Source of the DNA: Candidatus Thorarchaeota archaeon | Lineage (GTDB): Archaea; Asgardarchaeota; Lokiarchaeia; Sigyniarchaeales; SOKP01 | Assembly: GCA_048882645.1 (NCBI GenBank) | Contig: JBHLRJ010000003.1 | Coordinates: 2,409-66,408, forward strand | DNA: 64,000 nt | Reading direction: 5' to 3' | Part shown: in pieces, positions 5,126-15,070 of the stretch | How the letters are laid out: the number at the start of each line of letters is the position of its first letter | How positions within the stretch are numbered: the first letter of the stretch is position 1 | Program-made: the position numbers and the translations under genes | Notes under the pieces: generated by a model | Database searches by the model: none | What the model saw: only the letters and a program-made list of their open reading frames with translations | Told to the model about the DNA's origin: nothing

Positions 5126-7051
5126 ATGCCCGATTTTAAAAATTGGTTCAAAAAAATCAACCTTCCAATAACCTATGATTCTACGGTTGAAGATGTGATT
5201 GAAACAAATTCTCAGCTGATAGATTTTAAAGTATTTGATGAATTTTTCCTCAGAGATGAAGGAATTACCATTAATAATTTTTTTAAGCTCCTCATTGAAG
5301 AAATTCTCAAATCGAGCCCCGACACTTTAGCATTGTTTAAAGATTTAAGTGTAATAAATCCTGAATTACTCACTAATATTAACAGAAAATGTGTTATTGC
5401 TAGCTATGACGTGGTAGATATAGAAACCGCGTTTGATGAGTTAGTCAATACAAAATTATTGGAAAAAAAAGCAGAAAGTGAATCGGAATATGAATATTTC
5501 ATTGACAGGGTTCAATTAGAGTATGCAATAATAGCAGAAAAAAAAACTCATGAAAAAGCGCTAAAATACTATGAAACTAAGAAAAAAGTACTTGGTGAGG
5601 ATAGAAATGATCTGGTTGAAGTTCTATTTCATAAGGCGGTAATTAACCCTAATGAAGAGTTAGTTTCTGAGTTTATTCAAATTATGGGTAAACTTAGCAT
5701 AATGGATTATGGATATGGAAATTTAGTCAATGTGGGGAAACTTTTACTTACTCTCGATGATAAATACAGTGCTCCAATTCAAGTTAGAATGGGAAATATT
5801 TATTCCGATTTAGGATACTTTAGAGAAGGAGAAAAGCAATATAAGGATGCTTTAGAGTCTTATAATAGGTTAGCAAAAAAATATTATAAGATCTATTTAC
5901 CTTATATTGCTGCTACTCAGAAAGCCCTTGGTAAACTTTATGTCGATCTAAAAAGATTTGAGGAAGCTGAAAAGGTTTTTCTCGAGATACTGGAGGTTTA
6001 TAAAGAATTAGAAGAAAAGTTTTATGATGTCCATTCAACTGATATTGATCCTGAAGGTGAAGTCCCCGAGGCCGACTTCCATACCAAAGCTATCGAAATC
6101 GATGATTTTGAGGATCCTGAGAGTTTATGTCAAGATGCGTTAAATGCCTACAATGAAGTAGCTCAAAAATATTATGACGTGTACTTACCTGATGTAACAA
6201 GAACCCAATCTTATTTTGGAAACATATGGTTTGATACAAAACTTTTAGAAGAAACTGGAAAGAAATCTCCTGAGTCTTTAAACTATCCCAAATTATTAGC
6301 AAAATTGAGTTATGATTCACATTTAGCTGACATTGCCACAACTCAAAATAATCTTGCGTTGATTTATCGTGAAATGGGGAGATTTGCTGAAGCAGAAAAA
6401 AGGCATCTTGAAGCCTTAAAAATTAGAAAAAAATTATTTGAGCAATACATCCAGAAAGAATCTCCAAATCTTGCTTTAACAATGATTGATCTTGGGGATC
6501 TCTATGTGATGTCATTTAGGTATGATGAGGCTGAGCCATTGTACCGAGATGCTTTACAAATCGCAAAGAATTTAGCCCTCCAAAATCCTGAGATGTATTT
6601 AGTTCCTGTGGCTAATCTTCAGAACAAAATTGGCAATGTAAATGTAAATACGCAAGATTATGAAGAAGCAGAACCTATGTATCTAGACGCCCTCGAAGTC
6701 TATAAGAAATTAGCGAAAAGATTTCCTAAAATTTATTTAGCTCATGTTGCAATAATCCAAAATAACCTTGGTAATCTGTATATACATTCAAGAGAATTAG
6801 ATAAAGCTCAAGAATACCTTAATGCCGCACTAAAGTCTGATCCTAACAATGATGATGTTTTATATAGCCATGCATGCCTTGAATCCCTTAAAAATAACAA
6901 GGAAAAAGCATTAGAATTTTTATCTAAAGCAATAGAAGTTAATAAAAAAGTAGCTGAATGGGCTCTGATGGATAATTATTTCGAAAGTATTAAGGATTTA
7001 AAAGAATTTAAGGAATTAACTGGTCAAGAGATTAAAACTACACAGGAATAA
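5126..7051 (+). CDS. TPR repeat protein (kinesin-light-chain-like TPR units) with an unknown N-terminal domain
   Basis: Repeated units of the type NLALIYREMGRFAEAEKRHLEALKIRKKL and LGNLYIHSRELDKAQEYLNAALK. Confidence 0.75.
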   Translation: MPDFKNWFKKINLPITYDSTVEDVIETNSQLIDFKVFDEFFLRDEGITINNFFKLLIEEILKSSPDTLALFKDLSVINPELLTNINRKCVIASYDVVDIETAFDELVNTKLLEKKAESESEYEYFIDRVQLEYAIIAEKKTHEKALKYYETKKKVLGEDRNDLVEVLFHKAVINPNEELVSEFIQIMGKLSIMDYGYGNLVNVGKLLLTLDDKYSAPIQVRMGNIYSDLGYFREGEKQYKDALESYNRLAKKYYKIYLPYIAATQKALGKLYVDLKRFEEAEKVFLEILEVYKELEEKFYDVHSTDIDPEGEVPEADFHTKAIEIDDFEDPESLCQDALNAYNEVAQKYYDVYLPDVTRTQSYFGNIWFDTKLLEETGKKSPESLNYPKLLAKLSYDSHLADIATTQNNLALIYREMGRFAEAEKRHLEALKIRKKLFEQYIQKESPNLALTMIDLGDLYVMSFRYDEAEPLYRDALQIAKNLALQNPEMYLVPVANLQNKIGNVNVNTQDYEEAEPMYLDALEVYKKLAKRFPKIYLAHVAIIQNNLGNLYIHSRELDKAQEYLNAALKSDPNNDDVLYSHACLESLKNNKEKALEFLSKAIEVNKKVAEWALMDNYFESIKDLKEFKELTGQEIKTTQE

Positions 7052-7843: not shown

Positions 7844-8275
7844 ATGAAAAAAATCATTAAAGAATTCAAAAATAAATATTTCTTTCTCTCAAACTTTTTT
7901 CCCGTTAAAATTAAGATAGATGGAGTAGAATATAGATCTTCAGAACATTATTTTCAAGCAATGAAATTTACCGATCCCATAATTCAAAAACATATAATTA
8001 ATGCCCCTAGTGCTTCAGTTGCCAAAAAAATGGCTAAGAAGTATAATCGACGAGAAGATTGGTATGAAATCAGTTTGGATGTAATGGAGAAAGCATTAAG
8101 AACAAAGTTTGCCATACCCGAATTGCGCGATAAATTACTTGCTACAGATAATATGTATCTCCAAGAGGGTAATCGATGGAACGATACTTTTTGGGGTGTT
8201 GATTTACGTACAAGGAGAGGAAAAAATCATTTGGGTAGATTGTTAATTAAAATCAGGTCTGAATTAAAGAAATAA
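7844..8275 (+). CDS. NADAR (YbiA/DUF1768) family protein
   Basis: F..FS.F.P...IDG..Y.S.EHYFQAMKF motif and the C-terminal W..D.FWG......G.N.LG.LL pattern characteristic of NADAR domains (recalled, not searched). Confidence 0.75.
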   Translation: MKKIIKEFKNKYFFLSNFFPVKIKIDGVEYRSSEHYFQAMKFTDPIIQKHIINAPSASVAKKMAKKYNRREDWYEISLDVMEKALRTKFAIPELRDKLLATDNMYLQEGNRWNDTFWGVDLRTRRGKNHLGRLLIKIRSELKK

Positions 8276-8281
8276 AGATCA

Positions 8282-9178
8282 TTAATGCAGAGGTGGCTTC
8301 TTATTAAAAAAAGTTCGATAACAGTTACAACATGGGATCCCAAGAACAATCTTATTGGAATAATATTTATCGAAATCTTCGGAAATTAATTCTATTAATT
8401 GATTTTTAAGTTTAATATCTTTCTTCTTTTTGCTAAAATAAAAATTTAGAAGATAGTTAGTGTGGTTGTTTATTTTACAAAAAGGGCATCTTGAAAAATA
8501 CTCGATAAATCTATCACATAACCTTTTGGCTTTGCCATTAAGTGATTGGTATCGCTGGTCTAACACCTCTACGGGATAACGATTATTCCCTAACAATTGG
8601 CTAACGATATCTTCCACACTTTCTCTAATTGGTTCAACTTGCTCATAACTCACTCTTTTTGATGTACGAGAATATAATATGTTAGTAACTAATTGTTTAA
8701 TAATACAATCCTTTTTACTTTCTTCATAGATATTTGTTGAGTAATATGTAATGATTCCCTTATTCCTCACAAATTCGTTAATCTCCTCTGAATTTACTTC
8801 TGGTTCAAGATCACTTTTAGTGCCGATTAAGATTGTAGGGATATTCCCATTAATTTTTCTTATCAATTTTATCCATGCATCAAGATCTTCAAAAGTCTGG
8901 TGACGAGAAAGGTCAAAAAATAACAATGTTCCTGCAGAACCCTTAAAAAACGAAGGATAAAACAATGGTATTCGAACTCGTTGACCTATTTCCCAAGTAG
9001 CACACCTGCATAGATCACCATTATCTAAAAAACTGTCTACTACATCAAAATCTATCCCAAAATGCCGCATTGTATTAAATCCTCCACTTCTAGTATCTAT
9101 AGTACCTCTGATAAAGGTTGTTTTTCCCACATAGGACGATCCCACCACTGTAATTTTGATCCGCCAACTTGCAGACAT
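8282..9178 (-). CDS. Ras/Rab-like small GTPase with a C-terminal Cys-rich (zinc-ribbon-like) domain
   Basis: G1 GSSYVGKT, G3 WEIGQ, G4 TKSD. C-terminal SRCPFC..NH...GIPCCNC. GGAGAGG SD-like run before the ATG. Confidence 0.75.
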   Translation of the reverse strand: MSASWRIKITVVGSSYVGKTTFIRGTIDTRSGGFNTMRHFGIDFDVVDSFLDNGDLCRCATWEIGQRVRIPLFYPSFFKGSAGTLLFFDLSRHQTFEDLDAWIKLIRKINGNIPTILIGTKSDLEPEVNSEEINEFVRNKGIITYYSTNIYEESKKDCIIKQLVTNILYSRTSKRVSYEQVEPIRESVEDIVSQLLGNNRYPVEVLDQRYQSLNGKAKRLCDRFIEYFSRCPFCKINNHTNYLLNFYFSKKKKDIKLKNQLIELISEDFDKYYSNKIVLGIPCCNCYRTFFNKKPPLH

Positions 9179-9272: not shown

Positions 9273-10361
9273 TTAAAATAAACTCATGTGAGCCAAATCT
9301 TCTGAAGCATCCTCTATAAATCCGCAATTGGGGCATATTTTTTTTCGCTGTTTCGGTTGTTTGCATGAAGGACAGTTAACAGAATAGAATGCTGTTATAT
9401 AAGCTTCTCCTTTGAGATTATGAGATTGTATTATCACACCATCAATTTCGATCTGGTTTAAACTGCTTTTATTCTCTTCTAATTCTGAAATCTCTTTAAA
9501 CATTTTCCTTGTCTTTTCAATTGCTTTCTTATAGGGTCCTTTCCCCTTCACTTCCCATGAGATATTCGATTCTATAGATTCAAATAATCCCTCTTGACGA
9601 ACTTGGAAATTACGTGGTGAACGATAAATTTCTACACCCTTAATTTCTCCTTCATTATTGATCACGACTACACCAACTGTATTTTTTGGAAACTTGACTT
9701 TCTTTGCCCTTTTTTTGATTCTTCCTCTTCTAGCTGATATTCCTAATGTATATTGTGAATGATCTGAAATTCCTTTTTCACTTGCCATTTCCTCACTGAC
9801 TTTATTCCACACTTTATATTGGCTAATATGGGAAGCTCCTATAAATCCAGAAGCACTAGAATATTTCATCGATCTCATTTCATTGAGCATTCCTCGACTG
9901 GCTTTTCCTCCGTACCCAAATGAAGCACCTGATGATAAACGATGAGGAGCATGTACACATTTAACACTGATGACTTGAGATATGCCTGCTTCAACCATTA
10001 CAGTGCCAATACAAATTCGATCTTGTGTTCCCTGCCCTAGAAAAATTTCTCCTTCCTCAATAAGAATTGGCATGTTTCCTAAGTTTTCAAAAACAATATG
10101 AGCTACTTCAGTCCCTTTATCAATGATATTACAAACTCCCGTCTCAATTGCTTCTGAAAGAGTAAGATAATCACGTTCTTCTTTTGGAATCTCATGCTTA
10201 AGAATCGGTACAAACGAAATTTCGTCTAAAATAACAGGAGTTCCTATTTCGAACCCATCCATTTCTAGCACACGCATTGCGAATTTTTTAATTGTTTCGG
10301 TCTTTGACATTTTCAAATTCAACTTATTTTTGTTATGTAGATTTTGAACTAAAGCCTTCAA
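9273..10361 (-). CDS. ARPP-1/DUF6569-like protein with a C-terminal zinc ribbon
   Basis: The motifs YLTLSEAIETG, EEGEIFLGQGTQDR, VKCVH, QYKVW and GVVVINNEGEIKGVEIY resemble the DUF6569/ARPP-1 pattern (from memory). C-terminal CPSC-x10-CPNC. The track start is TTG at 10361; the first ATG is at 10310. Confidence 0.5.
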   Translation of the reverse strand: MKALVQNLHNKNKLNLKMSKTETIKKFAMRVLEMDGFEIGTPVILDEISFVPILKHEIPKEERDYLTLSEAIETGVCNIIDKGTEVAHIVFENLGNMPILIEEGEIFLGQGTQDRICIGTVMVEAGISQVISVKCVHAPHRLSSGASFGYGGKASRGMLNEMRSMKYSSASGFIGASHISQYKVWNKVSEEMASEKGISDHSQYTLGISARRGRIKKRAKKVKFPKNTVGVVVINNEGEIKGVEIYRSPRNFQVRQEGLFESIESNISWEVKGKGPYKKAIEKTRKMFKEISELEENKSSLNQIEIDGVIIQSHNLKGEAYITAFYSVNCPSCKQPKQRKKICPNCGFIEDASEDLAHMSLF

Positions 10362-10505
10362 TTGTTATTTTTATAAACTAATTGAATTTTCGCTTTAAAT
10401 CTTGTATACCAAGAAAAAAAACTTATATAAACTTATGGATCACTAAATTTCATGGATCCTAGCTCAACCCTCCACATATATTAAAAAATAAAAAAAAATT
10501 AAAAA

Positions 10506-11405
10506 TTAAAATTTAAAAATTTCCCTAAATTTATCCTCCTTTAAAACATTAACTCCTAAGACATATTCCATATAGTTCAAACCATTCTTATGCCCTGCTT
10601 GGCTGAAACTAGCGCTTAAATCCTCACATAGGTATACATTTTTAAAATTGTGGATAACTTTTAATTCGAAAGTCAATAATTTCAATTTTACATCTGTTAC
10701 TACTCCAAAAACTCCAATAATTGCTTTCTCTGTTGAGCTATTATGATTATTAATGATAGAATCTAGTATAAAATCAAGTTTGGTTTCAGTAAAAGAGCTA
10801 AGACTGTTAGAATTGATTACTTGCGTAAAAGTGTTATAAGGAGGTGTTTCTACGTATTTTGCCAAGGATTCGATAAATTTTGCTCCATGCGATCCTTTTA
10901 TACAATGATATCCAAAGTTCGTCATTTCTTCTACCTGACTAGGATCAATTGGATCATGCCAATCTCTTAAATGTATAAAATAGTAGCGATCTTTATTATC
11001 AGCTTTATTTGTATCAGAAGCTTTTTTCATAAGATCGTCTATAAATTTTACTAACCTATCATTATCCCATAATCGATTTGATTGATCGATATTGATGTGG
11101 ACTCTGTGTTTATATTTTTTAATAAATTGATGGTAAGAATACTTTAACTCGTTTGCCCTAGGGTCATCAAAATTTTTTATCATTTCAATGAAATTATCAA
11201 TATCTTTCTCGCCTGGTGGTATTGTTTTATTTTTAAAATACCTTATCCATTGTTCTCTACACACTTCATAGCTTACTTTCCAAGGATCACTAATATCATT
11301 TTTAATTTCAGCTAGATATTCTCTTTCAATGAAATCATTCTGCATCGAATTTGTTATAATTATATATAAATTGCCAGATTCGTTATTTTCTATATACTTA
11401 GACAT
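10506..11405 (-). CDS. isochorismatase/nicotinamidase-fold protein with the catalytic Cys and Lys positions substituted
   Basis: IIITNSMQNDF, DWHDPID, YHCIKGSHGAKF and GVFGVVTDVKL align with the PncA motifs (vvD.QNDF, DWHP.H.SF, HCV.GT.GA.F, G.A.D.CV). ATG is preceded by GAGGGG, 12 bp after the WD40 gene stop. Confidence 0.6.
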   Translation of the reverse strand: MSKYIENNESGNLYIIITNSMQNDFIEREYLAEIKNDISDPWKVSYEVCREQWIRYFKNKTIPPGEKDIDNFIEMIKNFDDPRANELKYSYHQFIKKYKHRVHINIDQSNRLWDNDRLVKFIDDLMKKASDTNKADNKDRYYFIHLRDWHDPIDPSQVEEMTNFGYHCIKGSHGAKFIESLAKYVETPPYNTFTQVINSNSLSSFTETKLDFILDSIINNHNSSTEKAIIGVFGVVTDVKLKLLTFELKVIHNFKNVYLCEDLSASFSQAGHKNGLNYMEYVLGVNVLKEDKFREIFKF

Positions 11406-11417
11406 ATTTAGCCCCTC

Positions 11418-14159
11418 TTAATTTGTTTTTATTCCCCCTGTTCCTAATCTTCTTCTTGCTAGGACAGTTTTAATTGGTTTTTTAATCAAAATTAATATAA
11501 AAACAGTGATAAACAAGACACTTACAAATGCATTTAGACTTAATAGAATTATCCAAATAGGTTCTATAAAACGTCCAGGTTCCTCAAAAATATCTTTATA
11601 AAGAATTAAAACACTTATTATAGTGAAAAGAAAATCGAGCATTACCAATCCCGCAAGATATTTGTCTAGAATTTTCCCTCCTCTTGACCATGAACCTTTC
11701 CCAATTTTAATTATAGCATGTGGATTTGGAGGAGAGTGAAAATTATTTCTAAATGCTTCAAATAATTCAATGTCCCCTTTTACCTCCTTTCTAGATTCTA
11801 AAGGGTTTAAACTTTCAGTTAATTCAACGGAAATCTTTCTTATTTTAATTTTTGCATAATCTTCCACACTGTATCTCTCGTTTAATTTAAAGATACAATC
11901 AGAATAATAGAATTTATCAGGAATACCCTCCTTTGTATTATTGTAGGCCTTTTCATACGGTTCAGAATGCTTATCCTTTATTGATTTATACGGTTTTTTT
12001 AATATATATAATGGCACATATCGTTGATCATTTTCCTTTTCATTGTTTTCTTTTTTATCCTTTTGTTTTTTCTTCTCACTTTGTTCAGCCTTTGGCTTAA
12101 TTGATAGTTTAAAATCTGTAAATATTAACTTATCTTTGTCGCCACGATCGTCTTCAATATCTAGATTAACTGCTTTTAATAATGGTATGAATGTGGTTGG
12201 AACCCTATCTAAAACCATTAAGAACCTTAATTGTGATTGGGTTCGATCCCTGAGAATTATAAAGGGTTCTTGTTCATTTTTCCTATTTGAAAAACTATTA
12301 AAATTGGTAATTTCAATAAAACGTGCGTATTCGATTGGTTTTTCTATGTCTGTGGTTAAAAACAGTTTAAATTTCCATTGTAAATGGGGAACTTCATGAA
12401 ACATCTTTGTCGTACTGAACCAATAACTCTCATAATTTGTCCTTACACTATCGATATATATTCTCTGATCCTTGTCAACTCCCTCGAACTTTATAAATGA
12501 TGGTACAAAGAGAGCACCTAACTTTCTTGGATTATACCCTTCAATTGGATCTTTTAACCTTGTTTTAATCTCAGTATAGATCTTCTTTAATGATTCTTCA
12601 TCTTCATCCAAAGTTTTTACAATTTGTTTTAAATTAGGACCATATATTTTTTTATAGAGATCCTTATGCTTAAGCTCTAAAAGTTTAAGCTGCTGATAAA
12701 AATGCCATATTCGACCATAATTTCTGAGAATTAAGACTTTATTTTTCTTTATTGCAAAAATATATTGATCTCTAGGAGAAAGTAAGATCTGTCTCAAAAA
12801 ATCTAAACCCAAACCGTAATCTTTTAATTTTAACTCTTCGTGGTTCATTTGATGTTCTTTCTCTTTGCTTTTTTTCTGGAGCTTAATTTCATTATATATG
12901 TCGATTTCGTCATCAAGATTTATGTTTCTTACTAAAACTTTATCAGTTATATTCCATACCTTTATTGTGTTATCTTTTGAAGCAGAAAAAAGATATTTAT
13001 CGTCATCCTGGACAACTAATGATACAATCTCTTTAGTATGGTCAAACTTCTCGAAAATTTTCTTTCTTTTTTCGATATCCCATACCCTAACTACATTATC
13101 AAGGCAACCTGAAGCTACTTTAGTTCCATCTTTAAAGATTTTTACACAAGTTATACCATTTTCATGGGATCCGATTACTGATTCCTTCCTATCATTGTCT
13201 AAATCAAATTTATATATGTTATTATCATTGGAACCACTGATTAAAAATTTCTGATCCTTTCCATTATATAAATCAAATGTTAGAATCCACTCACCTTTTG
13301 TGCTTAGATTAGAATCACGTTGTATTGGTTGCTCACTAGAAGGTATTAGATGCAACTCTCCAATGAAATTTTCTCCAGTCTTATCTTTAGAATATATTCC
13401 GATAGTGTTAGCAGAAAAAAATATTCTAAATCCCTCTTTTAGATTTCCATCTAATTTATCTGCTAGTTTATCTGGTAAAATTTTGATATCAAAAATAGCT
13501 TTCTGAGTTTTACTCTCTTCTGAAAATTTTTGATAAAATTTAGGTTTTAAATTCCATTCTTTCTGTTTTTCATCAACATCACCAATCCAAACATATATTT
13601 CTCCGTTGATACTCCCCGCACATACAATCCATATTTCCTTATTATTTATTTCGGTTGTTAAAGCGTCAACACATAGCAACCAATTAGTTTTTTTTACTTC
13701 TCCTACACCCTCTCCTCTCTCTTCTGCTCTTATAGATCCTTCTAAAATAAATTCTTCTTTCCCTACCTTTTGCAAGATTTTATCTATTGACCATACACAT
13801 ACTCTTGGAATTTCACCTTCCTCAAGTTCAGAGCAAATTATTAAATATTCACCATTTGGAGTTATTACCATGCTTCTAACATCAAGATCTTTGCTTAAAC
13901 CTGTTTCTCGATAACATTTTAGCACTTGTCTTATGACTGGTTTTTGAGCTTTTTCTTCAATTTTGACCTTTTTCTTTACATCTTGCATTTCTATAGTTAA
14001 ATCATCTAATTTACTTGCATCAATAATAATTTCATTTTTACCTTGCCTAAGAACTATCTTTTTATCCTCTGTCTTAGCTTTCAATATATTAGTTATCTTC
14101 TGAGATGGGTCATCATATTTAGTTTCATTATGAGTATTACTTGTCAAATTATTCGCCAT
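11418..14159 (-). CDS. WD40 beta-propeller protein with a large middle region and a C-terminal two-helix membrane anchor
   Basis: Canonical WD units (GHENGITCVKIFKDGTKVASGCLDNVVRVWDI; DHTKEIVSLVVQDDDKYLFSASKDNTIKVWNI). C-terminal hydrophobic helices LVMLDFLFTIISVLILY and IWIILLSLNAFVSVLFITVFILILI. Confidence 0.8.
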   Translation of the reverse strand: MANNLTSNTHNETKYDDPSQKITNILKAKTEDKKIVLRQGKNEIIIDASKLDDLTIEMQDVKKKVKIEEKAQKPVIRQVLKCYRETGLSKDLDVRSMVITPNGEYLIICSELEEGEIPRVCVWSIDKILQKVGKEEFILEGSIRAEERGEGVGEVKKTNWLLCVDALTTEINNKEIWIVCAGSINGEIYVWIGDVDEKQKEWNLKPKFYQKFSEESKTQKAIFDIKILPDKLADKLDGNLKEGFRIFFSANTIGIYSKDKTGENFIGELHLIPSSEQPIQRDSNLSTKGEWILTFDLYNGKDQKFLISGSNDNNIYKFDLDNDRKESVIGSHENGITCVKIFKDGTKVASGCLDNVVRVWDIEKRKKIFEKFDHTKEIVSLVVQDDDKYLFSASKDNTIKVWNITDKVLVRNINLDDEIDIYNEIKLQKKSKEKEHQMNHEELKLKDYGLGLDFLRQILLSPRDQYIFAIKKNKVLILRNYGRIWHFYQQLKLLELKHKDLYKKIYGPNLKQIVKTLDEDEESLKKIYTEIKTRLKDPIEGYNPRKLGALFVPSFIKFEGVDKDQRIYIDSVRTNYESYWFSTTKMFHEVPHLQWKFKLFLTTDIEKPIEYARFIEITNFNSFSNRKNEQEPFIILRDRTQSQLRFLMVLDRVPTTFIPLLKAVNLDIEDDRGDKDKLIFTDFKLSIKPKAEQSEKKKQKDKKENNEKENDQRYVPLYILKKPYKSIKDKHSEPYEKAYNNTKEGIPDKFYYSDCIFKLNERYSVEDYAKIKIRKISVELTESLNPLESRKEVKGDIELFEAFRNNFHSPPNPHAIIKIGKGSWSRGGKILDKYLAGLVMLDFLFTIISVLILYKDIFEEPGRFIEPIWIILLSLNAFVSVLFITVFILILIKKPIKTVLARRRLGTGGIKTN

Positions 14160-14272: not shown

Positions 14273-15070
14273 CTATGACTCTTTCGAAAACACTTTTTTG
14301 AAGCAGTTACAACACGGGATTCCAATCTTAATTTTACCTACTAAAAACTTATCAAAAAACTCAGAATCTTCCATAAGTTCAATAAGATTTTCCTTTAATC
14401 GCTTTGTAAAAGGATCATTAGAGAAGAAAACTCTATTTAAATTACTATGATGATTTTTTCCCAAACAAATGGGACATCGGGAAAAATACAAAAGGAATGT
14501 CTGATAGATATGTTTTTCTTGATCAGATAATTTTAGGTTTTCAGGTCTATAATAAACAATGTGTTCAAAAATACGGGAGACTATATTATCGAAAATCTGG
14601 GGAGTTTTCAGTTTGTCATGAGTAGAAATAAGATAAAATCTTGAAATTTCATTTGTTTCTACAAATTCACTAATCTCTTCCAAATTTATTTTGTCCTTTA
14701 TAGCTGATTTGAAAGCGATTAAAAAAATTGGAATTTGTCCAGAATATGATCTTATCTGTTCTAACCAATAATTTAAATCCTCAAAACTCTGTAAAACTGA
14801 AATATCATAGAATAGAAGACACGCTACAGCACCCCTAAAAAAGGTAGAACTCATAAATCGAAATCTTTGAGCACTATTAATATCCCAAATGCTTATAGTC
14901 AGACTGTCGCCATATTCGTTTGAACAAGATGTAGTTTTGATGTCAGTTCCTACAGTAATAAATGAATTCTTAAAAAAACTATTTATATTTTGCTCACACC
15001 CTTTAAAAAAAGCACTCTTAGCAGGATTCCATCCAACAGCCACAACCTTTACTTTAAATGAGCTAGACAT
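14273..15070 (-). CDS. small-GTPase-like protein with degenerate nucleotide-binding motifs and a C-terminal Cys-rich domain
   Basis: Ras-like fold pattern, but G1 is GWNPAKS, G3 is WDINSAQ and G4 is FKSA. The C-terminal SRCPIC..NHH...GIPCCNC is paralogous to 8282-9178. GGGGAG precedes the ATG. Confidence 0.6.
   Translation of the reverse strand: MSSSFKVKVVAVGWNPAKSAFFKGCEQNINSFFKNSFITVGTDIKTTSCSNEYGDSLTISIWDINSAQRFRFMSSTFFRGAVACLLFYDISVLQSFEDLNYWLEQIRSYSGQIPIFLIAFKSAIKDKINLEEISEFVETNEISRFYLISTHDKLKTPQIFDNIVSRIFEHIVYYRPENLKLSDQEKHIYQTFLLYFSRCPICLGKNHHSNLNRVFFSNDPFTKRLKENLIELMEDSEFFDKFLVGKIKIGIPCCNCFKKVFSKES

Follow-up and report, generated by a model that had tools for sequence, protein, structure and literature searches.

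A 64,000-nucleotide stretch of contig JBHLRJ010000003.1 from a Candidatus Thorarchaeota archaeon, referred to below as the window (G+C content, ~30%), encodes at positions 10506 to 11405 of the reverse strand a protein of 299 amino acids (aa) that, as judged by sequence comparison, represents a nicotinamidase-derived family with a fixed, rewired active site and an obligate membrane-anchored WD40 partner in Asgard archaea. Iso(K) is a working name coined here for this family, which is defined by a small residue at position 199, Lys at position 240, and Cys or Ser at position 260, together with a retained metal site. Iso(K) proteins may have descended from metal-dependent nicotinamidases in which the catalytic thiol gave way to Lys240 and the old catalytic Lys gave way to a small residue (Ser199). 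We favor, tentatively, the reading that the target protein is not an amidase, that its metal-dependent pocket accepts a pyridine or another NAD breakdown ligand, and that it serves as the sensing subunit of a membrane WD40 module. The gene and the residues on which the argument turns are as follows.

10506 to 11405, reverse strand: Iso(K) gene, 299-aa nicotinamidase-derived protein (open reading frame [ORF], Pfam, AlphaFold2 [AF2], and Foldseek); stop codon at 10506 to 10508
11334 to 11336, reverse strand: codon of Asp24 (QNDF motif), the Asp kept from the ancestral triad (alignment)
11112 to 11330, reverse strand: helical insertion, residues 26 to 98, specific to an Asgard sub-clade (AF2 helices and Asp-to-Asp spacing)
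10905 to 10973, reverse strand: residues 145 to 167, IHLRDWHDP...E160...FGYH, with the predicted metal ligands Asp148, His150, Glu160, and His167 and the family-specific His145 and Arg147 (Protein Data Bank [PDB] alignment)
10809 to 10811, reverse strand: codon of Ser199, at the ancestral catalytic Lys position (alignments to 3s2s, 6a8l, 5zn8, and 6kua)
10686 to 10688, reverse strand: codon of Lys240, at the ancestral nucleophilic Cys position (TD-x-C-V aligned to TN-v-K-l)
10626 to 10628, reverse strand: codon of Cys260, newly conserved as Cys or Ser where the next beta-strand ends (family alignments)

Fold and active-site residues

The nicotinamidase-type fold claimed in an earlier note on this DNA is confirmed. 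The protein passes the Pfam family PF00857 (Isochorismatase) at the border of acceptance, with 28.8 bits (E value, 1.5e-6) against a gathering cutoff of 27, and its gene, present as a single copy in the assembly, ranks third in a search of the genome. A single-sequence search with the target found the Streptococcus mutans nicotinamidase 3S2S, and a family profile of 27 sequences matched six solved superfamily members in the PDB, with a best E value of 3.3e-6. The best PDB matches found by Foldseek for the AF2 model, which was built on the 27-sequence alignment (pLDDT, 86.2; pTM, 0.86), were the nicotinamidases of S. pneumoniae, B. subtilis, and S. mutans, with E values of ~1e-9 and a target-normalized TM score of ~0.7. 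The predicted structure is an isochorismatase-like three-layer alpha/beta fold, closest to the nicotinamidases. The NCBIfam search returned nothing useful.

Solved nicotinamidases (PncA) include those of S. pneumoniae (3O90 to 3O94), B. subtilis (5ZN8/6A8L), S. mutans (3S2S), S. aureus (6KUA), and P. horikoshii (1ILW/1IM5); residues were mapped through four printed HMMER alignments, to 3s2s, 6a8l, 5zn8, and 6kua, all of which were concordant. Each motif listed in the earlier note is present in the 299-aa ORF under the residue numbers given there, namely, MQNDF at 21 to 25 (Asp24), DWHDPID at 148 to 154, YHCIKGSHGAKF at 166 to 177, VINSNS at 196 to 201, and GVVTDVKL at 234 to 241 (Lys240). The D-x-H...H-C-x-x-G-x-x-GA metal and loop motifs of the solved enzymes align with Asp148, His150, and His167, and Glu160 falls between His150 and His167 at the spacing of the fourth metal ligand, a position held by Glu in S. 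pneumoniae and by His in M. tuberculosis; by alignment, an Asp/His/Glu(His)/His metal site appears to be retained. Asp24 is likewise invariant, in 27/27 aligned Asgard sequences and in all 72 relatives aligned at that position. Both proposed losses in the triad were borne out: the TD-x-C-V motif aligns with TN-v-K-l so that Lys240 falls on the catalytic Cys in 4/4 alignments, and the Lys in mdKrhySaF is matched by the leading Ser of iNSNSLSSF, which places Ser199 at the catalytic Lys position within VINSNS. In addition, Iso(K) has a bulky residue (Ile, Val, or Trp) just before the conserved Thr; in solved nicotinamidases, a small residue at this position carries the cis-peptide of the oxyanion hole. 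An hhalign comparison of the family profile with the canonical PncA of the same genome was correct over the metal-site half and out of register over the C-terminal half, where VCGLALDYCC was paired with VYLCEDLSASF; it was set aside because the four HMMER alignments to solved nicotinamidases agreed with one another.

The earlier note had named a Cys or Lys supplied from a shifted position as a finding that would refute it, and this applies in part: there is an invariant Lys240 at the old Cys position and a conserved Cys or Ser at position 260, on the end of the neighboring strand. A rearranged catalytic set is accordingly possible. In the printed alignments, position 260 corresponds to Val in 3s2s and to His in the enzyme of B. 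subtilis; when the sequences were compared by eye, it corresponds to Val in an isochorismatase-family protein of the same genome (contig C9). Neither the invariance of Lys240 nor the new Cys260 had been pointed out in the note. The extra sequence between the QNDF and DWH motifs that the note described is also present, at ~85 aa relative to the PncA of the same genome and not the claimed ~110 aa. The Asp-to-Asp spacing between the two motifs is 124 in the target, 57 in bacterial relatives, and 38 in the canonical PncA, so that ~65 of the ~85 extra residues are specific to an Asgard sub-clade; within this insertion, the AF2 model places helices at residues 28 to 36, 46 to 57, 69 to 76, and 92 to 98.

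In summary of the comparison, PncA and the target share the fold, the Asp of QNDF, the D-x-H...E/H...H metal motif, the HC-x-x-G-x-x-GA loop, and a C-terminal GH helix motif, whereas the target differs from PncA in having Lys240 for Cys, Ser199 for Lys, a bulky residue at the oxyanion hole, His103, His145, Arg147, and Cys260, and the ~85 additional residues. It also differs in its sporadic distribution and in being encoded beside a WD40-TM partner instead of in an NAD salvage context. A canonical nicotinamidase is encoded elsewhere in the same genome (contig C103, 12176 to 12853, reverse strand), with QNDF, QDWH, HC, K...SGF, and LDYCC motifs and an intact Asp/Lys/Cys triad, which makes NAD salvage independent of the target. 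The C9 protein is the product of a second ordinary isochorismatase-family gene (6321 to 7049, reverse strand).

A fixed signature across the family

An exhaustive HMMER scan of 1.84 billion cluster representatives yielded 163 clusters, and all matches were aligned to the family model; the residue counts given here are drawn from 231 domain matches. Position 240 is Lys in 177 of ~188 aligned sequences and Cys in 2, and the two Cys240 sequences also carry Lys at position 199, a combination that identifies them as ordinary nicotinamidase-type outliers. Position 199 is Ser in 127 sequences, Ala in 37, Thr in 8, Gly in 6, and Lys in 2, and position 260 is Cys in 150 and Ser in 27. The metal ligands are similarly kept (Asp148 in 195 of the 231 matches, His150 in 196, and His167 in 201, with Glu in 111 or His in 83 at position 160), as are the family-specific basic residues His145 (168) and Arg147 (174). 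The combination of Ser, Ala, Gly, or Thr at 199 with Lys240 and Cys or Ser at 260 occurs in ~170 of ~175 complete relatives, and the target itself has the full signature (Ser199, Lys240, Cys260, His103, His145, and Arg147). Within the Asgard alignment of 27 sequences, Gln22, Asp24, Phe25, His103, His145, Arg147, Asp148, His150, Glu160, His167, Ser203, Lys240, and Cys260 are invariant. As read from these alignments, the residue swaps constitute a fixed family signature and not decay. A few members have Gln, Met, or Arg at position 240 and yet keep the whole metal site, which suggests that the metal pocket matters more than the Lys. A quick maximum-likelihood tree placed Iso(K) apart from canonical PncA-type sequences with an SH-aLRT value of 98.

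Relatives and domain fusions

That the gene is real is borne out by 59 relatives with E values of ≤1e-47 among 5.8 billion proteins searched, the nearest being 97% identical to the target, and all members of this set with a named source were Asgard archaea (Promethearchaeota/Lokiarchaeota and Odinarchaeota). Their automatic NCBI and JGI names are "cysteine hydrolase" and "nicotinamidase-related amidase"; the label "cysteine hydrolase family protein" and others like it misname the Iso(K) family, since the cysteine is absent. Distant relatives are mostly proteins of 570 to 940 residues in which an N-terminal Iso(K) domain is followed by TCAD9 (PF19974, an APH-like small-molecule-type kinase) and then by a DSP-PTPase phosphatase or Nudix domain, while others have an HD, CH, AMPK-CBM, or Ser/Thr kinase domain at the N terminus. 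TCAD9 reportedly goes back to work by Kaur and colleagues in 2020. The genome loci with fusion proteins came from Bacteroidota (Eudoraea and Urechidicola), Acidobacteriota, Verrucomicrobia, Sericytochromatia, and others. Archaeal and bacterial members are only ~30% identical overall, but their Iso(K) domains are homologous (hhalign probability, 100%; E value, 7.8e-40; 190 columns), and the bacterial Iso-like/TCAD9 fusions share with the target both the Ser/Ala199-Lys240-Cys/Ser260 signature and the metal site. Unlike these fusions, the target stands alone, has the ~65-aa Asgard helical insert, and is accompanied by a WD40-TM gene instead of kinase and phosphatase domains; Pfam scans gave no TCAD9 match in the target or in the neighboring genes. 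Across 16 bacterial fusion loci (98 ORFs), no family occurred in more than 4 ORFs, and no NAD salvage family was among the 25 commonest.

Three Asgard proteins (P0018, P0020, and P0021) have an N-terminal TIR domain fused to Iso(K). In the one fusion checked, P0021, the TIR domain can be aligned to Cat1, a TIR NADase associated with CRISPR, with the W-C-x-D-E-L motif and its Glu preserved. On locus L001 (6280 to 9329), a TIR-Iso(K) fusion gene is divergent from an adjoining SIR2_2-TPR gene and an 87-aa ORF. Just downstream of this stretch lies a VapB/PIN toxin-antitoxin pair, which gives the locus the look of a defense island. The Iso(K) family was not found described in a literature search, nor in the full text of Kaur et al. 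(2020) or of Iyer et al. (2022; PMC9503650); the former, which deals with ternary conflict systems, nowhere mentions an isochorismatase or nicotinamidase domain.

The WD40-TM partner

Directly upstream of the Iso(K) gene lies a gene for a second, larger protein, designated WD40-TM, and the two would form a pair with the following elements.

11418 to 14159, reverse strand: WD40-TM partner gene, 913 aa, combining a WD40 propeller and a helical region with a novel beta-rich domain and, at the C terminus, a two-helix membrane hairpin (Pfam and AF2)
11406 to 11417, reverse strand: 12-nucleotide spacer between the WD40-TM stop codon and the Iso(K) ATG, with GAGGGG (sequence TAAGAGGGGCTAAATATG)
10481 to 10505, reverse strand: T-rich tract immediately downstream of the Iso(K) gene, possibly an oligo-T terminator of the archaeal type (sequence; putative function)

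The comparison covered 29 Asgard loci, equivalent to 26 distinct contigs (L003, L004, and L030 are the same, as are L005 and L014). A WD40-TM gene is immediately upstream of Iso(K) in 29/29 loci (26/26 distinct contigs), down to 33% identity to the target, and no other neighbor is universal across the 26 contigs. In the relatives, the two genes overlap or sit a few tens of bases apart. The T-rich tract after the Iso(K) gene suggests that WD40-TM and Iso(K) probably form a bicistronic unit, separate from the next gene downstream, which encodes an ARPP-1 domain protein. The Iso(K) gene was found in 4 of the 151 sampled genomes of the phylum and in none of 4 nearly complete congeners, and the C-terminal domain of WD40-TM adjoins it in the same 4 genomes and occurs once more at a contig end; this occurrence identifies the pair as accessory and sporadic, not part of core metabolism.

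Pfam matches to WD40 cover residues ~290 to 420 of the partner protein, and its C-terminal 460 aa had no Pfam match. The AF2 model (pLDDT, 73.9) has hydrophobic C-terminal helices at 824 to 858 and 865 to 892, and Foldseek with the full model retrieved only beta-propellers, with no fold match for the C-terminal domain. A hidden TCAD9-like kinase in this domain was ruled out by comparison with the fusion profile (probability, 0.04%). The C-terminal 460 aa (window positions 11418 to 12797, reverse strand) are well conserved, for example, in the motifs DIEDDRGDKD-L-F-DF and W-H-F-QQLK, and part of the domain (profile positions ~97 to 313) also occurs in stop-free frames of 1,035 to 1,061 aa in Asgard families without Iso(K). 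In one lineage (locus L006, 4622 to 6970), WD40-TM is split into a gene for a 406-aa propeller and one for the 264-aa C-terminal domain, still directly upstream of Iso(K) and NadA, and one orthologue (G019, contig C266, 12387 to 13640) has an in-frame TAG in the conserved C-terminal domain, which could reflect a pseudogene, a sequencing error, or recoding.

Sensor or enzyme

The earlier note had suggested a sensor or neofunctionalized derivative rather than an amidase. The fold, the retained metal and aromatic motifs, and the absence of Cys and Lys from their canonical positions in part uphold this suggestion as the right frame, within which a rewired enzyme is nearly as probable as a sensor. 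The note considered the protein in isolation, whereas what is informative is its family, with the TCAD9 kinase and TIR fusions, and its obligate WD40-membrane partner. An ordinary amidase role is unlikely, because the swaps are fixed in a large family and a canonical PncA is present in the genome. According to the reading that we favor, the protein has retained the alpha/beta fold, the residues of the metal site, an aromatic pyridine cage (Phe25 and Trp149), and Asp24, has acquired a bulky residue at the oxyanion-hole position and the new basic residues His103, His145, and Arg147, and would have lost nicotinamide hydrolysis, its metal pocket now binding a free pyridine-type product of NAD turnover. 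The strict retention of the four metal ligands and the Phe/Trp cage suggests that the ligand is still a metal-coordinating, pyridine-type base, and the added basic residues hint at an acidic ligand, so that nicotinate, quinolinate, or a similar acid is a likelier candidate than nicotinamide itself. With the positive charge moved from position 199 to position 240, Asp24 may still be paired with a Lys. In Asgard archaea, the partner would be the cotranslated, membrane-anchored WD40/novel-domain protein encoded just upstream, and in other lineages, the Iso(K) module would act while fused to a TIR NADase-type domain or to a kinase with a phosphatase, Nudix, or HD domain. Sensor and regulatory domains typically recur beside different output domains, and it is this recurrence, along with the loss of Lys240 in members that keep the metal site, that leads us to favor a sensing or regulatory subunit. 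The fold, the residue swaps and their conservation throughout the family, the domain fusions, the obligate pairing, the sporadic distribution, and the separate canonical PncA are observations; from them we infer metal occupancy, ligand identity, the sensor role, and a physical complex with the WD40 protein. The neighbors related to NAD or ADP-ribose are quinolinate synthase (NadA), encoded downstream of Iso(K) in 15/26 contigs, and ARPP-1 and NADAR domain proteins in the window.

Several considerations weigh against a sensor: (i) the ligand, the metal, and the complex are deduced from sequence and context; (ii) the conservation of Lys240, Cys/Ser260, Asp24, His103, His145, and Arg147 would fit an active site equally well; (iii) alternation of Cys and Ser, as seen at position 260, is typical of nucleophiles; (iv) the isochorismatases EntB and PhzD are active without Cys; (v) every other domain in the bacterial fusions is catalytic; and (vi) the evidence from NAD-related neighbors is weak, because NadA lies in a synteny block and ARPP-1 and NADAR are confined to close kin and probably belong to a separate transcript. 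The main rival is a neofunctionalized enzyme with a rewired triad, which we regard as only slightly less likely than the sensor. In such an enzyme, Asp24 would pair with Lys240, and Lys240 could serve Cys/Ser260 as a general base or could itself be the nucleophile, through a Schiff base, on a metal-bound pyridine or an open-chain ribose (e.g., that of ADP-ribose) and by a chemistry other than nicotinamide deamidation; WD40-TM would localize the enzyme at the membrane, and the bacterial enzymes would act in sequence with the kinase and the phosphatase or Nudix domain to which they are fused. In favor of this explanation, the metal ligands and Asp24, Lys240, Cys/Ser260, His103, His145, and Arg147 are nearly invariant from archaea to bacteria, Cys and Ser interchange at position 260, the fusion partners are all catalytic domains that act on phospho or nucleotide substrates, and the neighbor ARPP-1 is proposed to form covalent sugar adducts. 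EntB and PhzD provide a precedent for catalysis on the same fold without a thiol, by way of a conserved Asp; they have the canonical Lys but not the metal site of nicotinamidases, and Iso(K) is the reverse. The rewired enzyme nevertheless has to accommodate the bulky Ile, Val, or Trp before the conserved Thr, which would alter the cis-peptide oxyanion hole, and the several members with Gln, Met, or Arg at position 240 and an intact metal site; it has no nameable substrate, and the proximity of Cys260 to Lys240 is deduced from strand order alone.

Two further explanations have little probability. It is very improbable that the protein is a second PncA isozyme, an amidase with another nucleophile such as Cys260, Cys168, or a metal-activated water, even though the metal site, Asp24, and the aromatic cage are intact, a conserved Cys is nearby in the sequence, the database names point to a cysteine hydrolase or nicotinamidase-related amidase, and the adjacency of NadA ties the gene to NAD metabolism. 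The triad Cys and Lys are both absent in ~170 of ~175 members, and the structures from S. pneumoniae and P. horikoshii show that the metal of nicotinamidases holds the ring nitrogen of free nicotinamide, well away from the scissile amide. Cys168 is the ancestral noncatalytic residue of the HC motif, present also in the canonical PncA of the same genome, which already supplies the activity; a pair found in 4/151 genomes and 0/4 congeners is distributed unlike a salvage enzyme, and the database names are automatic. Hardly more credible is a ligand-free pseudoenzyme serving as a structural adaptor for WD40-TM and small GTPases, with the old pocket irrelevant. The obligate pairing with a scaffold-type WD40 protein, the Ras-family genes that flank the pair here and in close kin, and the loss of two of the three triad residues are in keeping with an adaptor, but it would leave unexplained both the fixed metal ligands, cage, Asp24, and new polar residues across archaeal and bacterial members that are ~30% identical and the TIR, kinase, and Nudix fusions, which have no WD40 partner.

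In bacteria, plants, and animals alike, immunity depends centrally on TIR and SIR2 enzymes that cleave NAD, and to our knowledge, the known downstream sensors all read the ADP-ribose-derived half of NAD, with none known for the nicotinamide half. Iso(K) is a candidate reader of that half, or a new enzyme chemistry on an old fold; its candidacy follows from the metal pocket being kept, the amidase chemistry being dropped, and the repeated wiring to TIR, kinase, phosphatase, Nudix, and WD40 domains. Thoeris ThsA, in which a SLOG sensor is fused to a SIR2 NADase, invites comparison with the TIR-Iso(K) fusions found near a SIR2-TPR gene, as a functional analogy only, since the folds are unrelated; in both, a domain that binds (in Iso(K), would bind) a small NAD-derived ligand is joined to one of TIR or SIR2 type. 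In the Asgard pairing, a membrane WD40 protein and Ras-family GTPases are eukaryote-like signaling parts whose inputs are almost entirely unknown. A broader proposal, which we consider unlikely as a whole, is that Iso(K) is a hitherto unrecognized domain, a receptor or an enzyme, for the free pyridines that NAD cleavage releases (nicotinamide, nicotinate, or quinolinate) and that it couples TIR- or SIR2-type NAD consumption to membrane WD40/small-GTPase modules in Asgard archaea or to kinase/phosphatase modules in bacteria. The domain would then have arisen from a nicotinamidase whose catalytic Lys shifted to the place of the nucleophile, and it would be the first dedicated nicotinamide-side sensor of NAD-based signaling, complementing the known sensors of the ADP-ribose side.

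Surrounding genes

The pair is set among the following genes.

9273 to 10361, reverse strand: ARPP-1 domain protein with a C-terminal zinc ribbon (PF20208, E value of 6.8e-31; Zn_ribbon_3)
8282 to 9178, reverse strand: Ras/Roc-family small GTPase, 298 aa (PF00071, E value of 1.6e-14)
14273 to 15070, reverse strand: Ras-family paralogue upstream of the WD40-TM gene, 265 aa (PF00071, E value of 7.7e-19)
7844 to 8275, forward strand: NADAR domain protein, convergent with the GTPase gene (PF08719, E value of 1.1e-25)

Among the loci compared, ARPP-1 adjoins Iso(K) only in the target locus and in its close relative L007. ARPP is predicted to act on ADP-ribose-derived sugars, and NADAR is an ADP-ribose-processing accessory (Iyer et al., 2022; PMC9503650). 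In having ARPP-1 and NADAR genes within 3 kb, the target locus recalls the ARG-centered ADP-ribose systems (PMC9503650), for which the rhodanese-phosphatase superfamily is the partner class named for ARPP (PMC9503650); the DSP-PTPase-type phosphatase of bacterial Iso(K) relatives is comparable to that class. Unlike those systems, the ORFs scanned at the target locus include no ARG, no Nudix/WYL regulator, and no phosphatase gene; Pfam scans of ORFs of at least 90 aa between 3822 and 17075 gave no ARG domain, only ARPP-1 and NADAR. PADLOC-DB 2.0 gave no matches for the target, ARPP-1, both GTPases, one TIR fusion, and two bacterial fusions, and its sole match was a weak, repeat-type one, HEAT-ARM_XIII, on the WD40 region. 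The zinc ribbon of the ARPP-1 protein has the form CxxC...CxxC, and its listed TTG start may be too far upstream, an ATG lying 17 codons in.

The two Ras-family genes on either side of the cluster are paralogous, and their products share 32% identity across 297 aligned positions that take in the tail past the GTPase domain. A homologue of the upstream one (14273 to 15070) adjoins WD40-TM in L007, on the same strand, and in L011, on the opposite strand; the Ras-family neighbor is limited to close kin of the window. In its own genome, NadA is encoded elsewhere. The adjacency of NadA to Iso(K) in other contigs sits inside a larger syntenic block of one clade, with leucine-rich repeat (LRR) genes (cluster 4), and was down-weighted as a functional link for that reason. 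Between positions 2000 and 21000 of the window, only one gene (~18.7 to 19.9 kb) had clear DNA matches in four congeneric genomes, in several paralogous copies, the remainder of these 19 kb showing poor conservation within the genus, and the comparison with these genomes, which are too divergent for the purpose, did not define an island boundary. Paralogous LRR proteins of ~680 to 800 aa, often in tandem, flank the Iso(K) pair on one or both sides in 17/26 contigs (L003, L005, and L012 to L033), and these genes may represent either a further component or a local LRR expansion.

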